From the NCBI GenBank assembly GCA_020697135.1, contig JAJFBM010000003.1, forward strand, positions 7,768 to 71,767: DNA of 64,000 nt, given 5' to 3'. Below are positions 13,611-21,990 of this stretch, piece after piece; position 1 is the first letter of the stretch; each line of letters opens with the position of its first letter. Made by a program: the position numbers and the translations under genes. Under the pieces are notes generated by a model. It worked only from the letters and a program-made list of their open reading frames with translations. It ran no database searches and was not told the DNA's origin. The stretch comes from Rickettsiaceae bacterium (GTDB taxonomy: Bacteria > Pseudomonadota > Alphaproteobacteria > Rickettsiales > Rickettsiaceae).

Positions 13611-15194
13611 ATGCCAAATCTCCCAATAATTATTACACAACCACTGTCTGATAATATTAAGCTTGTAGTAGAGGCAATAGATAATGAGGCAAATATTGAT
13701 ATAGTAGATAATGTAAATTTAAAAGAAGAGTTTGAAATTTCAATTGGTGAAGATTATAAATTTAATACTTCTTTAGCGCATTATGCTGCCATTAAATCTT
13801 ATAAATTTGCTGAATATATAATTGAAACTTTAGGAGTACCTCCTGATAGGAAAACAAAAATGGGCTTTACTTTTTTACATTGTGCTATTTTAGGTGGGAA
13901 GAAAAATATAGTATCTTTGTTGCTTAATAATAATTTTAATGTAGAAATTGGTAATGATAATGGTGAAAGCTGCCTTCATCTTGCGACAATTAACGGGGAC
14001 AGGCCATTAATGCAATTATTGCTAAGTAAAAATTTAGATCCTAATCAAGGTAATAAAGAAGGTTTTACCCCTCTGCATTATGCAGCACGTTTTGATAATC
14101 CCGAAGTAGTTGAGCCATTAGTGGTAAAGGGAGCGCTTCCATATCAAGGTAATAGAGAAGGCATTACTCCCCTTCATTATGCTGGGCGCTATAATAGCTC
14201 TAAAGTTGTAAAACCCTTAGTAGATAACGGGGCTAAAATAAGCCAAGGGGCACCTTTTGGTATTAACCCACTTCATGAAGCAGCACGTTATAATAGTGAT
14301 TTAGTCATAAAGCCTTTAATTGAATTAGGGATTAGTCCTAATCAAGGAACAAGTAGCGAAACATTCGCCTTAACGCCACTTCACATGGCAGCTTTCCAAA
14401 ATAACCCTAAGGTAATAAAGGCTTTAATAGAGAATGGAGCAGATAAGAATCAAGGTAATAAGGATGGCTATACTCCCTTACATATTGCCATAGTCTTTGC
14501 AAATAAAGAAGCAACAAGCGAACTTATCATTGCACGTGCTGATCTTTATAAAGGTAATAAAGATTTAGACATTTCTTTGTTGCTTGCGACTGGTAAAGGG
14601 AAAATAGATTTCAAGAAAGTTGAGAGCTTTTTTGCTAAGCATAAATTCCCAGCTAAGCCTATACCAAACGAAGAGGCCTATAAAAAAGTTGCTGAGCTAT
14701 TATTGCCATGTTTTCTAATTTCATATTTTAACCACAAGGATTCACTTGGAAAAAATGCATTAGATTATGCTCGGGAAGCAAGGTTTGGCTCTATAGAGAC
14801 ACAGTTAAATTTATATAAATGTTTTCATGATTCAGTAAATCAACGAGGCGAGAAAAACGCTATATTAAAGTACCTTAATTCGCCAGAGGATTTTGAGTTT
14901 GTAAAAAATTTAAATAAGAGTTTCTGTAAAAACCTTGATTCAAATGCTTGTAATTCACATTTTACAAAGCTACGTGCATTATTGCCTATAATAGAGGATG
15001 TAAACTTAAAAAATATAGCGAAAGAATATAATATAATGCTAAATGATCTTAAAAAAGATATTATAGCAAATATTGAGAGCACAAATACACAGCAGGCTCA
15101 TGACTTGCTACATAATGATATTTTAATAGAGGCAGATCATATATCAGTAGAAGGTGAGCTAGGGGTACTTGGCGTGGATAATGCAAACGCTTAA
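13611..15194 (+). CDS. Ankyrin-repeat protein (effector-like) with an acidic C-terminal tail motif
   Basis: 527 aa with at least 8 ANK repeats, for example GFTPLHYAARFDNPEVVEPLVVKGA, GITPLHYAGRYNSSKVVKPLVDNGA and GYTPLHIAIVFANKEATSELIIARA. The tail is LLHNDILIEADHISVEGELGVLGVDNANA. Confidence 0.9.
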   Translation: MPNLPIIITQPLSDNIKLVVEAIDNEANIDIVDNVNLKEEFEISIGEDYKFNTSLAHYAAIKSYKFAEYIIETLGVPPDRKTKMGFTFLHCAILGGKKNIVSLLLNNNFNVEIGNDNGESCLHLATINGDRPLMQLLLSKNLDPNQGNKEGFTPLHYAARFDNPEVVEPLVVKGALPYQGNREGITPLHYAGRYNSSKVVKPLVDNGAKISQGAPFGINPLHEAARYNSDLVIKPLIELGISPNQGTSSETFALTPLHMAAFQNNPKVIKALIENGADKNQGNKDGYTPLHIAIVFANKEATSELIIARADLYKGNKDLDISLLLATGKGKIDFKKVESFFAKHKFPAKPIPNEEAYKKVAELLLPCFLISYFNHKDSLGKNALDYAREARFGSIETQLNLYKCFHDSVNQRGEKNAILKYLNSPEDFEFVKNLNKSFCKNLDSNACNSHFTKLRALLPIIEDVNLKNIAKEYNIMLNDLKKDIIANIESTNTQQAHDLLHNDILIEADHISVEGELGVLGVDNANA

Positions 15195-15305: not shown

Positions 15306-15764
15306 TTATAATATTTTACCTACAGGTATGTCATGTGGGTCAGACTCATGGCTTTCAGGATCATTAAATGGCATTTCTGTGTAGCCATTTTTAAGATAAA
15401 AGTTTAAAGAAGTTTGCCTTGATTCTGCATGAATAGTTTTTACTCCTAAAGTTTTAAGCCATTGCTCTATTAAAATCAAAAATTTGCTTCCTGCGTTTTG
15501 ATTTCGTTTATACTCCTCAACTGCCATTATACGAATAGCTGCTCTCATAGCTGGCCAAAGTTGGATATGGGTATAAGCAATGATATTAGATCCTTCATAC
15601 AAAACAAAATGTGCGTGGTTAGAATCATTAAATGTCCAGGTATAAGGATCTTCTATGCCGTAAGGACCAAAGAAATATTTATCACGGAAATGCTTAGCAG
15701 CCTTCCACTCTTTTTCGTTATTACATTTATGCATTTGAATCTGATGAAAGTCTGTACCTTTCAT
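15306..15764 (-). CDS. GNAT-family N-acetyltransferase
   Basis: 152 aa. Acetyl-CoA binding region IMAVEEYKRNQNAGSKFLILIEQWLKTLG and C-terminal FYLKNGY. Confidence 0.8.
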   Translation of the reverse strand: MKGTDFHQIQMHKCNNEKEWKAAKHFRDKYFFGPYGIEDPYTWTFNDSNHAHFVLYEGSNIIAYTHIQLWPAMRAAIRIMAVEEYKRNQNAGSKFLILIEQWLKTLGVKTIHAESRQTSLNFYLKNGYTEMPFNDPESHESDPHDIPVGKIL

Positions 15765-15798: not shown

Positions 15799-17562
15799 CT
15801 ACTCAGACATATTAGAACCCTTAGAGCTTTTACCACTTAAGAAGCTTCTAAGTTTTCTTGATCTGCTTGGGTGTTTTAACTTGCGGAGTGCTTTTGCTTC
15901 AATCTGCCTAATTCTTTCCCTCGTAACTTTAAACTGATGGCCTACTTCTTCTAAAGTATAATCCATAGGCATACCAATACCAAAACGCATTCTAAGTACG
16001 CGTTCTTCTCTTGGTGTTAGGGTTGAGAGAATTCGAGTCGTAACCTCACGCAGATTAGATTGAATAGCTGCATCAATAGGTAGTACAGCATTTTTATCTT
16101 CAATGAAATCACCAAGATAGCTTCCGTCCTCGTCTCCTACTGGGTTTTCAAGACTTACTGGCTCTTTAGCAATCTTCATTACCTTTCTAACCTTCTCTAC
16201 AGGCATAGAAAGTCTGCTTGCAATCTCAGCTGGGGTTGGTTCGTAACCGAGTTCATTAAATAACTGTCTTGAGGTACGGATAATCTTATTTATAGTCTCA
16301 ATCATATGAACAGGGATACGGATTGTTTTACCCTGGTCAGCAATAGATCTAGTAATTGCTTGCCTAATCCACCAAGTAGCATAGGTTGAGAATTTATAGC
16401 CAAGCCTATATTGGAATTTGTCAACAGCTTTCATAAGACCAATATTACCTTCCTGGATAAGATCAAGAAACTGTAGGCCTCTATTTGCGTATTTCTTAGC
16501 AAGAGAGATTACAAGCCTTAAGTTCGCTTCAATCATTTCCTTCTTTGCACGAGAAGCTTGCCTATCACCTTTTTGTACAGCATTTACAACTTGTTTGAAT
16601 TCATTAATAGGAAGACCTACTTCATGCTCTATAGTTTTAAATTCAGCAATGGATTTCCTTATTTCTTTTTCTTCCTTCTCAATAAAATCTTTCCAGCCAG
16701 TTTCTTTTAGCTTCGCAACTTTCTTAATCCAATTATCATCAATAACTTCTCCCATATAATTATTTAGGAAGCTTTTTCTGGTTATGCCATGTTTCTCAGC
16801 TAAGCGGAGGAGATTAGATTCTTTGGAAATTAATGTTTTATTTATATGATATAGAATATCTAAAATATCTTGAATACGTTTTTCACTTAAATGTAGCGCT
16901 CTAATTTGCTCGACTAACTTTTCAATTAGTTTTTGTGAAGCTTTATCGTGAATAGGGATTTTTAAAGCGTCATAAGCTTTTTTAATTATAAGCAGTAAAT
17001 CTTCTGCCATTTTGGCAATATTTGCAAGATTATCCAGTACAACAGGGAGTAATTGTGATTCTAATGCTGCTGTGGTAGTATTTGAATAATCTTCATCATA
17101 GCCTTCAGTGTCTTCTTCAGTATCTGTATCTATATCAAGATCTGATTCTTTGTCAGCTTCTTCAAGTTCATCGCCAACTTCATCACCCCTATAGGCTTCA
17201 AGGTCTACTAAATCCCTTAAATTAAATTTTTCATTTGCAAGATCTTCGTACCATTTAATAAAGGTTTTAATTGCAATCGGGCTTTCGCAAAGGGACTTAA
17301 TAAGCATTTCTTTCCCTTCTTCGATTTTTTTTGCAATCTCAATCTCACCTTCACGAGATAATAACTCAACTCCACCCATATCTCTTAAATAAAGGCGAAC
17401 AGGGTCATCAGTAGTGCCTAAATTTTCATCTACTTCTTCCTCTTCTTCTTCAAAATCGGCAGCATTCGTTGTAAATCTCACTTCCTCGTCGATATTAATA
17501 TCGAGTTTGATATCTTCAGCGTCATCTTCTAATATATCAATACCAGCGTCGCTCAAGGTCAT
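15799..17562 (-). CDS. rpoD: RNA polymerase primary sigma factor (sigma-70), main body. Its natural N-terminus lies in another frame (see 17537..17734).
   Basis: 587 aa. Region 2 is [42 protein letters not shown]. Region 4 is [30 protein letters not shown]. An acidic non-conserved insert is present. Confidence 0.95.
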
Positions 17563-17734
17563 CAGCAGTTAATTTTGCTTCATCGGGCAAAGCTTTATTT
17601 ATTTCATCATAAGTAACAAATCCTTTCCCTTTAGCTTGTTTCATCAGGGAATCCATATTTTCGGGCTTTTTACTAGTCGCTTCTGTTGGTTGTTTACTTT
17701 GTTTCTGTGCCATATATTCCTTAAATTCGTTCAC
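17537..17734 (-). pseudogene. rpoD: Detached 5' fragment of rpoD (start of sigma-70 region 1.1), out of frame with the main ORF
   Basis: [53 protein letters not shown] matches the alphaproteobacterial RpoD N-terminus (..KKRGYVTYDELN..LP.E..S.E.IED). It ends at TGA 17537, overlapping the main ORF by 26 nt in a different frame. Confidence 0.8.
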
Positions 17735-17740
17735 TTAACG

Positions 17741-19552
17741 TCAATTATTATCTAAAACATATTTTTCAAGTTCTAGGTGGATATTTTCTATCTCTTTCTT
17801 ATATATTTGTGCTTTTCGGAAGGACTCTTCATTATAGGTTTCCAGGAGAGTTATATATTCTTTCTTCATTATTGCAAGATTATACCGTTTTAAAACTATG
17901 CTCCATATAGCCTCTGGAGAATATTTATTACTATTTAAAAATTGGGTGTCTAAGAATACGGAATTAGTTTTTGATAATAATATAAATAAGTCAGAAAATC
18001 TACTATTTTTAAATAAAGCTTCAATTTTTCCTAGATTTTTGTCAGTATTATCATCGCTTAAGTTGATTAATTCATCAAGATTTTCAAATATAAATTCTCT
18101 AAGATCTATAATATCCTTATTATGTAACTCAAGATGGTTTAAAGTTTCAAATATTGCATCATTTGTTAGGCTTTTCGGAAATTTCAATATGTAAGAAAAT
18201 ATTGCATATTCTAAATGTTCAATTTCGCTTATCTTATGGTCTGGAAGCTTAAGATTTACCTGAATTGTCTGCTGGGTATTAGTTTTCTTCTTTTTTTGCC
18301 TTAGCTTCCATAGTTGGTCCTTAAAGAAATAATATAGGTTTTTGCTAAGAATTTGATCCTTCAGGCTTTTTGTATAATGAGTTAAACGGGCCTCTAATGA
18401 AGCATGATGTTCAGCCGATACAAAGTTTTTATCATTTGTCTCAATATGCCAGATAGCTTCTGAAAGCGGTAGTCTTTTTTCAATTAAGTTTTCTACAAAA
18501 TTTTTCTCTTTAGTTTTTACAAGCTCATCAGGGTCAAGTCCTTCTGGTAGGAATACAAAGCTTAAAGTTTTGCTATCTGTCACTTGCGGCAGGGCAAGCT
18601 CAATTGCTTTTACAGTAGCTTTAAGACCAGCTTGATCACCGTCTAAGCAGAATATTATTTCATCAACAATTTTCCATAATTTAGAAAGATGATTAGTAGT
18701 AATTGCTGTGCCAAGAGATGCTACAGTTTCTTCATAACCAGAGGATTGCATTGCTATAGCGTCGATATAGCCTTCTACTAATATCATCCTATTTTTCTTA
18801 TATGCTGCAGCAGTTGCTTTATTTTCACCGTAGAGAGTTTCATTCTTTTTAAAAAGTAATGTTTCAGGTGAGTTTAAATATTTAGGTTGTATAGAGCCTA
18901 GAGCGCGGGCACCAAAAGCAATAGTTTTATCAAATATATTTTTGATTGGAAATGTAACTCTATCCCTAAATATTTCATAAGTAACACCATTTTCCCTTTT
19001 ACCTATAAGCCCAGCTTTTTGTATGTACATTAATGGAATTTTTTTAGATTCTAAAAATTGCTGGAGCTGGTTATGGCTTGGGGCGTAACCTATATCAAAT
19101 TTTTGGATTTGCTCTGCACTTATCCCACGCTTTGCAAGATAATCAATAATATGCTTATTTTCTTTTTTTCTAATTTGCTCAGTGAAAAAGCGATTAGCAA
19201 GCTCAAGAACTTTTTGGATTTCATCTATTTCATCATAAAGCTCTGCCTCTTTACGACTTAATTTAGGTATCTCAATACCATTAGCTTCAGCAAGTTTTAT
19301 TGCTGCTTCTTGATATCCAATGCCACTAGTTTCTGAGACGAATTTAATTGCATCTCCATGAGCTCCACAACCAAAACAATGGTAGAAGCGCTTAATATCA
19401 TTTACTGTAAAAGAGGGGCTTTTTTCATCATGAAACGGGCATAGGCCTGAGAATTCGTAACCTTTCCTTGTTAATTGTACGCGGCTTGAGACTACCTGTG
19501 AGACAGATAATCTTTGTCGCAGCTGCTCAAAAAACTCCAAAGGTATTCGCAT
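17741..19552 (-). CDS. dnaG: DNA primase
   Basis: 603 aa. Zinc finger CPFHDEKSPSFTVNDIKRFYHCFGCGAHGD and TOPRIM VEGYIDAI...DGDQAG. It sits immediately upstream of rpoD, the classical dnaG-rpoD operon. Confidence 0.95.
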   Translation of the reverse strand: MRIPLEFFEQLRQRLSVSQVVSSRVQLTRKGYEFSGLCPFHDEKSPSFTVNDIKRFYHCFGCGAHGDAIKFVSETSGIGYQEAAIKLAEANGIEIPKLSRKEAELYDEIDEIQKVLELANRFFTEQIRKKENKHIIDYLAKRGISAEQIQKFDIGYAPSHNQLQQFLESKKIPLMYIQKAGLIGKRENGVTYEIFRDRVTFPIKNIFDKTIAFGARALGSIQPKYLNSPETLLFKKNETLYGENKATAAAYKKNRMILVEGYIDAIAMQSSGYEETVASLGTAITTNHLSKLWKIVDEIIFCLDGDQAGLKATVKAIELALPQVTDSKTLSFVFLPEGLDPDELVKTKEKNFVENLIEKRLPLSEAIWHIETNDKNFVSAEHHASLEARLTHYTKSLKDQILSKNLYYFFKDQLWKLRQKKKKTNTQQTIQVNLKLPDHKISEIEHLEYAIFSYILKFPKSLTNDAIFETLNHLELHNKDIIDLREFIFENLDELINLSDDNTDKNLGKIEALFKNSRFSDLFILLSKTNSVFLDTQFLNSNKYSPEAIWSIVLKRYNLAIMKKEYITLLETYNEESFRKAQIYKKEIENIHLELEKYVLDNN

Positions 19553-20847: not shown

Positions 20848-21990
20848 ATGGATAAAAAAATAAATAGTCTTCTTAAAGCGGATCAGAATGAGCAAAAGGA
20901 TTCTAAAGGAAATGACCTTAATGAGAATGGTATGTTAAGCGATATTACCTCTGTTGAAGATGAGCAGGATTTTACTGAGCTAGATGAACCTATAGATATT
21001 GAAGAGCCTGAAAAGGAAGAACTTGAAAAGGAAGCATATGATGTACTGCCTAAAAACCTTAGCCTTGAGCCAACTATTACTAGAAAATTTAGCACGAGCC
21101 TGCCAGGTTTAGTACCAAGTGAAAATGGTTTTTCAAGATATTTGCAGCAAATTAATAATATTCCGTCCTTAACTCAGGAAGAAGAGTTTTTACTTGCTAA
21201 GAATTATTACGAACAACATGACTTAGAAGCGGCTCACAGGCTTGTGACAAGTCATTTGAAGCTTGTTGTTAAAATTGCCCTTTCTTATAGAAATTATGGC
21301 TTGCCAATGGTAGAGCTTGTTTCAGAAGGTAATATTGGCTTAATGAAGGCTGTAAAAAAATATAACCCAGATTTAGGACATAGGCTCTCTACTTATGCAA
21401 TGTGGTGGATTAAAGCATCAATTCAAGAATATGTGTTAAAATCTTGGTCTTTAGTAAAGTTAGGTACAACCGCAGCGCAAAAAAAATTATTTTTTAGTCT
21501 AGGTAAGCTTAAACATAGGATTAGAAACCTTCATTCTAGAGATGTTAATGAGCAAGATTATAAGTTTATTGCAAGAGAGCTTGGCGTAACTGAGCAAGAA
21601 GTATCAGAAATGGATATTAGGCTTTCCAACGCAGATCTCTCTCTCCATGCCCATGCAGGTAACGATGATGACTCTTCAGAATTAATAGAATTTGTGCCAG
21701 AAGCTCGCCCAAGCCCAGAAGCTTTAATAGCTACTAAACAAGATTCTATGTTGAAAAGACAGCTTCTTGCTAAAGCTTTAAGTATATTAAATGAACGTGA
21801 GCTTCACATATTGCAGCAAAGGAAACTTACTACCCCTCCAGCAACTCTAAAAGAATTAAGTATTCAATATGATATATCTGAAGAGCGTGTAAGACAGATA
21901 GAAAATAAGGCGTTCGAAAAAATTCAAGCTCATATCTTAAGTGAAGCTGCTAAGCTTGAAACTCCTACTCCAAAGAATTTGATTACATAG
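20848..21990 (+). CDS. rpoH: Heat-shock sigma factor RpoH (sigma-32) with an acidic N-terminal extension of about 83 aa
   Basis: 380 aa. Region 2 is [43 protein letters not shown]. The RpoH box is LVKLGTTAAQKKLFFSL. Region 4 is LKELSIQYDISEERVRQIENKAFEKI. Confidence 0.9.
   Translation: MDKKINSLLKADQNEQKDSKGNDLNENGMLSDITSVEDEQDFTELDEPIDIEEPEKEELEKEAYDVLPKNLSLEPTITRKFSTSLPGLVPSENGFSRYLQQINNIPSLTQEEEFLLAKNYYEQHDLEAAHRLVTSHLKLVVKIALSYRNYGLPMVELVSEGNIGLMKAVKKYNPDLGHRLSTYAMWWIKASIQEYVLKSWSLVKLGTTAAQKKLFFSLGKLKHRIRNLHSRDVNEQDYKFIARELGVTEQEVSEMDIRLSNADLSLHAHAGNDDDSSELIEFVPEARPSPEALIATKQDSMLKRQLLAKALSILNERELHILQQRKLTTPPATLKELSIQYDISEERVRQIENKAFEKIQAHILSEAAKLETPTPKNLIT

Follow-up and report, generated by a model that had tools for sequence, protein, structure and literature searches.

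Metagenome-assembled genomes come with a known hazard. Local assembly errors in such genomes yield incorrect protein-coding sequences, which then propagate, as excerpts of the paper by Chen et al. set out (2020, Genome Res 30:315, PMC7111523), and the same excerpts report 13 local assembly errors in one genome of 1.13 Mb. Region 1.1 of bacterial sigma factors has a literature of its own (PMC12478191, PMC7641759, and PMC5066175), and the abstract of the last gives Ehrlichia chaffeensis only rpoD and rpoH. Both subjects bear on the rpoD gene described here. The organism, an uncultured member of the Rickettsiales from soil, is represented by a metagenome-assembled genome of low coverage, and in the 64,000-nt stretch of its DNA that was analysed as a whole (the window) the gene for the primary sigma factor stands divided between two reading frames. 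We put at roughly four in five the probability that this split is a draft-assembly error, an unsupported join that omits 20 nt.

As the record stands, the ORFs of the window place rpoD in two minus-strand ORFs that occupy different frames. The N-terminus of RpoD lies in an ORF of 65 codons (17537..17734, minus strand), or 58 codons when counted from ATG 17713. The fragment so delimited (17540..17713, minus strand) consists of 54 authentic codons (MAQKQ...LTADDLE) and four out-of-frame ones (RRWY) and then runs into the stop, a premature TGA at 17537..17539 (minus strand) that closes the shifted frame and is seen both in the ORF list and in the sequence. The rest of RpoD, 587 aa in all, is encoded at 15799..17562 (minus strand), beginning in the second half of region 1.1 and continuing through regions 1.2, NCR, 2, 3, and 4; its frame is shut by a TAA at 17569-17571. 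Judging from the sequence, the true start of rpoD is likely to be the ATG at 17711-17713 (ATG 17713), before which a Shine–Dalgarno-like AAGGA can be read on the same strand at 17718..17722. The leader of the gene, CGAATTTAAGGAATATATG, is identical in the same-genus genome with which we compared the locus. ATG 17562, by contrast with a conserved start, is on the face of the sequence a chance in-frame methionine.

Both pieces are recognizable as RpoD. The 58-aa fragment matches the Pfam family PF03979 (Sigma70_r1_1) with an E value of 2.4e-09 over profile positions 3-40 of 81, and the match in the intact RpoD of the same-genus genome extends over positions 3-68 of 81. By Pfam, then, region 1.1 is split in the window and is not contiguous with region 1.2. 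The 587-aa ORF scores above the cut-off for each of PF00140, PF04546, PF04542, PF04539, and PF04545 (regions 1.2, NCR, 2, 3, and 4, respectively) and is the NCBIfam RpoD equivalog NF004208, with 776.7 bits against a cut-off of 555 and a match to profile positions 65-629 of 631. Set against the same-genus protein, the 54-codon N-terminal part is 83% identical to residues 1-54 and the 587-aa ORF is 91% identical to residues 60-643, with no further lesion. Among the named RpoD proteins of the genome collection, the nearest (65% identity) belongs to an entry called 'MAG: Rickettsiaceae bacterium'. The division of rpoD into an N-terminal ORF and a 587-aa ORF, which a first-pass annotation had reported from the letters of the window, is thus confirmed by ORFs, Pfam, and NCBIfam alike. 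The same annotation had remarked on the absence of mononucleotide and dinucleotide runs at the break, and rightly so: on inspection, the sequence around the break shows neither a homopolymer nor a dinucleotide run.

The neighbors of the gene deserve a few words. Directly upstream of rpoD is an ORF (17741..19552, minus strand) that we take to be dnaG, the primase gene, a name given by recognition of its translation and by synteny rather than by a family scan; the order is the same at the same-genus locus. Just downstream of rpoD is a 152-aa ORF (15306..15764, minus strand), which adjoins the gene for a 527-aa protein (13611..15194, plus strand). The same-genus DNA identity of this gene is just 65.5% over 586 nt, and the protein presumably contains many ankyrin-like repeats, to go by its translation as read by eye.

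Our reference for the lesion was the intact, single-frame rpoD (643 aa) of one same-genus genome, the sole same-genus genome compared. Aligned with it, the 5′ end of the window's rpoD is 84% identical and free of gaps but for a single one, of 20 columns: one contiguous block of 20 nt is missing in the window between 17551 and 17550. The gap can be placed in only one way, since the flanking bases differ from the block's own ends, and as 20 nt is not a multiple of three, the reading frame moves. At this junction (17550..17551, minus strand), then, 20 nt are absent that are present both in relatives and in the re-assembly of run X1 described below. The first-pass annotation had bracketed the shift within 17540..17568, which is where the gap falls, and the alignment with the rpoD of relatives that it recommended did locate the indel. 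A single-base indel or a homopolymer error is ruled out by the one 20-nt gap in the alignment.

The relatives also show what has gone missing. All 11 of them carry RpoD from its N-terminus through DPVRLYL (region 1.2) in one open frame, although one of these ORFs ends at a contig end. The block, (L/I)(E/D)xxIxxFSDAG at the protein level, is present in nine of the 11, the other two having short, divergent N-termini. What the window has lost thus belongs to a conserved portion of region 1.1.

Two sequencing runs contain the stretch: X1, which holds a share of 0.99 of its words and is a possible source, and X2, which holds 0.23 and comes from a different study. The runs containing this DNA carry the label soil metagenome, and no RNA run is among those listed as containing it. 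We examined X1 and X2 over 16800..18300 in the form of Logan contigs, and such contigs drop rare variants. Logan is an independent re-assembly of raw reads at k=31, in which k-mers seen once are discarded. Thirteen X1 contigs align here, and two of them, records 1 and 6, are at least 99% alike to the window. Record 1 (7750 nt, depth 7.24) has no mismatches, and its first letter coincides with 17550. Record 6 (2774 nt, depth 5.83) approaches the same point from the other side, with no mismatches over 17551..18300, and then continues for another 28 letters that depart from the window, CCAGCGTCAGAAAATTTAGATATTGCTT on the plus strand.

Turned to the gene strand and compared by hand, these 28 letters consist of the 20-nt block and, after it, 8 nt that equal window 17550..17543. 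An alternative sequence at the site is therefore supported by a contig that equals the window perfectly up to 17551 and then carries the block and 8 nt of what lies downstream. The block in record 6 differs from that of the same-genus genome at two positions; in frame, the overhang reads DLE-QAISKFS-DAG, a peptide identical to that of the same-genus RpoD. With the block in place, rpoD would form a single ORF of about 644 codons (54 + 6 + 584 by manual count). Record 6 reaches only 8 nt into the downstream side, with no bridge to record 1, and the intact form is seen over 28 nt, not end to end.

The junction of the deposited contig, 17551|17550, is found in none of the 13 aligned X1 Logan contigs, from which rare single reads could have escaped. 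Depth gives a second view of the same site. The bin 17514-17564 has a depth of 6.85, which is precisely the length-weighted mix of records 1 and 6, (37 x 7.24 + 14 x 5.83)/51, and therefore no other X1 contig, of any strain, covers the junction. Local depth in X1 is only about 6-7x, and it is exactly at the junction that the re-assembly breaks. As far as X1 goes, rpoD appears to be intact in the predominant genotype. Elsewhere in the interval, X1 includes contigs of low depth (2-3x) that are about 90% alike to the window (records 3 and 7, at 17217..17409 and 17817..17967) and so indicate that this soil sample also contains a related strain or species.

In X2 the site is bridged, with extra letters, by two contigs, records 9 and 10, which are about 90-93% alike to the window. 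Record 10 has at least 14 inserted letters at 17550-17558; record 9 has 20 gap letters, a count taken over the whole alignment with their position not itemized. A search of metagenome contigs for two 15-nt flanks of the window, separated by a gap of 0-30 nt, returned no stretches (the window's own genome was perhaps excluded), and hence there is no independent JGI contig of this strain in either form.

What carries the argument is the conjunction of two observations: the block occurs in the probable source data on DNA identical to the window, and the junction is unseen there. An assembly error is therefore favored. If so, the organism would carry one continuous rpoD of about 644 codons, and the deposited contig would have joined two stretches at 17551|17550, leaving out the 20 nt for (Q)AISKF(S), residues from the middle of region 1.1; the loss would move the frame and produce both the premature TGA and the appearance of a second ORF. 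There are two ways in which this may have come about. The assembler or scaffolder may have abutted two contigs, without an N, over a short break in coverage, or the assembler may have followed a single aberrant or rare read. The start of record 1 at the first base shared by both forms fits one read per form and so would suit the second of these. An assembly or base-calling error was among the possibilities listed in the first-pass annotation, and that much is now favored by the block in an X1 contig; the single-base difference expected with it gave way to a lesion of 20 nt.

Is the genome as a whole in poor repair? The window comes from contig 24 of an assembly of 1.39 Mb in 54 contigs, 78.45% complete and 32.9% GC. 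From 587,678 nt of the same-genus genome (43 loci) we took 362 ORFs of at least 150 aa, searched them against the whole assembly, and counted a pair when the top match had at least 55% identity, which gave 193 pairs. Of these, 178 are full-length in a single frame, 11 are partial in a single frame, and four are spread over more than one frame. By their coordinates, two of the four are paralogue or spurious second matches; the two true splits are rpoD and an flgF-like gene. The comparison was also made in reverse, where 944 ORFs of this genome gave 201 matches and three apparent splits in the same-genus genome by tblastn. These apparent splits lie at loci L131 (about 753-766), L124 (about 4425), and L099 (about 620-625), all at the level of tblastn. 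The share of frame-split genes is about 1-1.5% in both draft genomes, and because the two are similar, this is a background level and no sign of decay. General decay, or indel noise throughout the assembly, is ruled out by the figure of two true splits in 193.

Two other places in the assembly, both outside the window, have a bearing on how it was put together. The flgF-like gene, a flagellar rod gene on contig C39, lacks a clean 67-nt block at about 8849/8850 relative to the same-genus genome, a gap that may have arisen either from another faulty join in the assembly or from a real deletion. The assembly's single N, at C49:3501, sits inside an ORF with a stop at once after it (DDEX*DEF), between near-duplicate copies of a GATGAAT motif. 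It has the look of a scaffold join made within a gene, and an N in that position would mean that contigs were joined over small breaks inside genes. In relatives, the gene at C49:3501 has only a 100-nt, 75% match in the same-genus genome and none in the two other genomes searched. Contig-end overlaps (96, 74, 32, 30, 24, and 20 nt) yielded no single k value.

The rival that fares best takes the record at its word. It holds that a real 20-nt deletion, in the strain or in part of the population, was followed by the assembler, and that its carriers have either no functional sigma-70 or a truncated one, whose translation would begin at ATG 17562 or at a codon close by and leave out roughly the first 57 residues of region 1.1. 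We consider this unlikely. The deposited contig itself has the junction, but no X1 contig does, and it is the block-bearing form that is attached to window-identical sequence. A majority deletion allele at about 6-7x should give k-mers seen at least twice and hence a bridging contig. Record 1, for its part, begins exactly after the gap, as it would at a branch of the graph or where the counts of two alleles were summed; one deletion-bearing and one block-bearing read would leave only the shared k-mers passing, and that would put the deletion in at least one read.

The biology of such a deletion also has two sides. Sigma-70 of E. coli and SigA of B. subtilis have been studied as active proteins without region 1.1, according to PMC12478191. 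ATG 17562, however, has no Shine–Dalgarno-like motif, and no purine-rich one is to be read in the 20 nt preceding it; moreover, rpoD is the sole primary sigma gene found in the assembly. The clean 67-nt gap in the flgF-like gene on C39 could speak for deletional decay in a host-associated lineage, but split genes number only two among the 193 compared, and the remainder of rpoD, which carries no other lesion and has 91% protein identity to the same-genus copy, is unlike a pseudogene. A pseudogene in a decaying genome would be in different company from what we find here, namely two split genes in 193, no other lesion in rpoD, and no second rpoD (in an assembly 78% complete). Real mutation with re-initiation at ATG 17562, which the first-pass annotation had put forward, accordingly stands as the main rival but at low probability, with the junction absent from X1 contigs and no Shine–Dalgarno motif at the proposed start. 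The more specific idea that a deletion allele segregates in a soil population of Rickettsiales, whose carriers survive on a sigma-70 re-initiated inside region 1.1, strikes us as quite improbable. Were it true, it would be a natural experiment on the dispensability of the autoinhibitory N-terminus of a primary sigma factor, and a real deletion of any kind would be moderately interesting for region 1.1 biology.

Much fainter is the prospect that rpoD is a pseudogene and that a second primary sigma gene elsewhere does its work. With the assembly 78.45% complete, a second copy could sit in the missing part, but searching the whole assembly with the 587-aa ORF brought up two places only, rpoD itself and a sigma gene whose product is 31% identical to RpoD residues 330-564. 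The latter is rpoH (21109..21953, plus strand; NCBIfam TIGR02392, rpoH_proteo, 340.9 bits against a cut-off of 323.1). The compensating second rpoD that the first-pass annotation allowed for is thus not borne out in the 78% of the genome at hand, where only RpoH turns up besides, and rpoD is otherwise intact and highly conserved. To our knowledge, small Rickettsiales genomes typically carry only rpoD and rpoH.

Programmed +1 ribosomal frameshifting that would join both frames, as in prfB, is effectively excluded, and the first-pass annotation's low opinion of it is borne out: overlapping ORFs in frames 0 and +1 do jointly cover RpoD, but the frames are separated by 20 missing nt and not by one, a slip anywhere in 17540..17568 (and indeed any joining of the frames) would leave a protein without six to seven residues that are conserved in nine of the 11 relatives, all 11 have RpoD in one frame with no conserved shift, the site has no in-frame stop, no rare codon at a slippery site, and no Shine–Dalgarno-like stimulator, and the block is present in the X1 re-assembly.

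We return, then, to a probable assembly error and what it means. An essential housekeeping gene is seemingly frameshifted in a low-coverage metagenome-assembled genome, yet the data of the probable source sample retain the 20 bases, and we offer this as a caution. Taken at face value, the record leads to the call of a truncated or pseudogene rpoD in databases, one that might pass for recoding or genome decay. What comes of the analysis is a corrected reading of rpoD, together with a warning about the assembly.

How does the locus compare with the systems it resembles? The likeness to a prfB-type +1 frameshift is superficial only and ends with the overlapping ORFs in frames 0 and +1; the window's rpoD has none of the slippery site, stop, stimulator, or conservation of such a frameshift, and a 20-nt gap takes the place of one base. 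As for the cases of Chen et al., there, as probably here, a short stretch of consensus that lacks support on re-assembly, inside a coding gene of a low-coverage bin, led to a wrong gene call; the excerpts of PMC7111523 take as the mark of an error that not one read supports the consensus perfectly, a judgement made here on contigs. With the RpoD of Alphaproteobacteria (NF004208) the window's gene shares all domains in their usual order and the dnaG-rpoD arrangement; it differs in that the loss of 20 nt interrupts it within region 1.1. Restoring the block from X1 would make it an RpoD of the ordinary kind, about 644 aa long.
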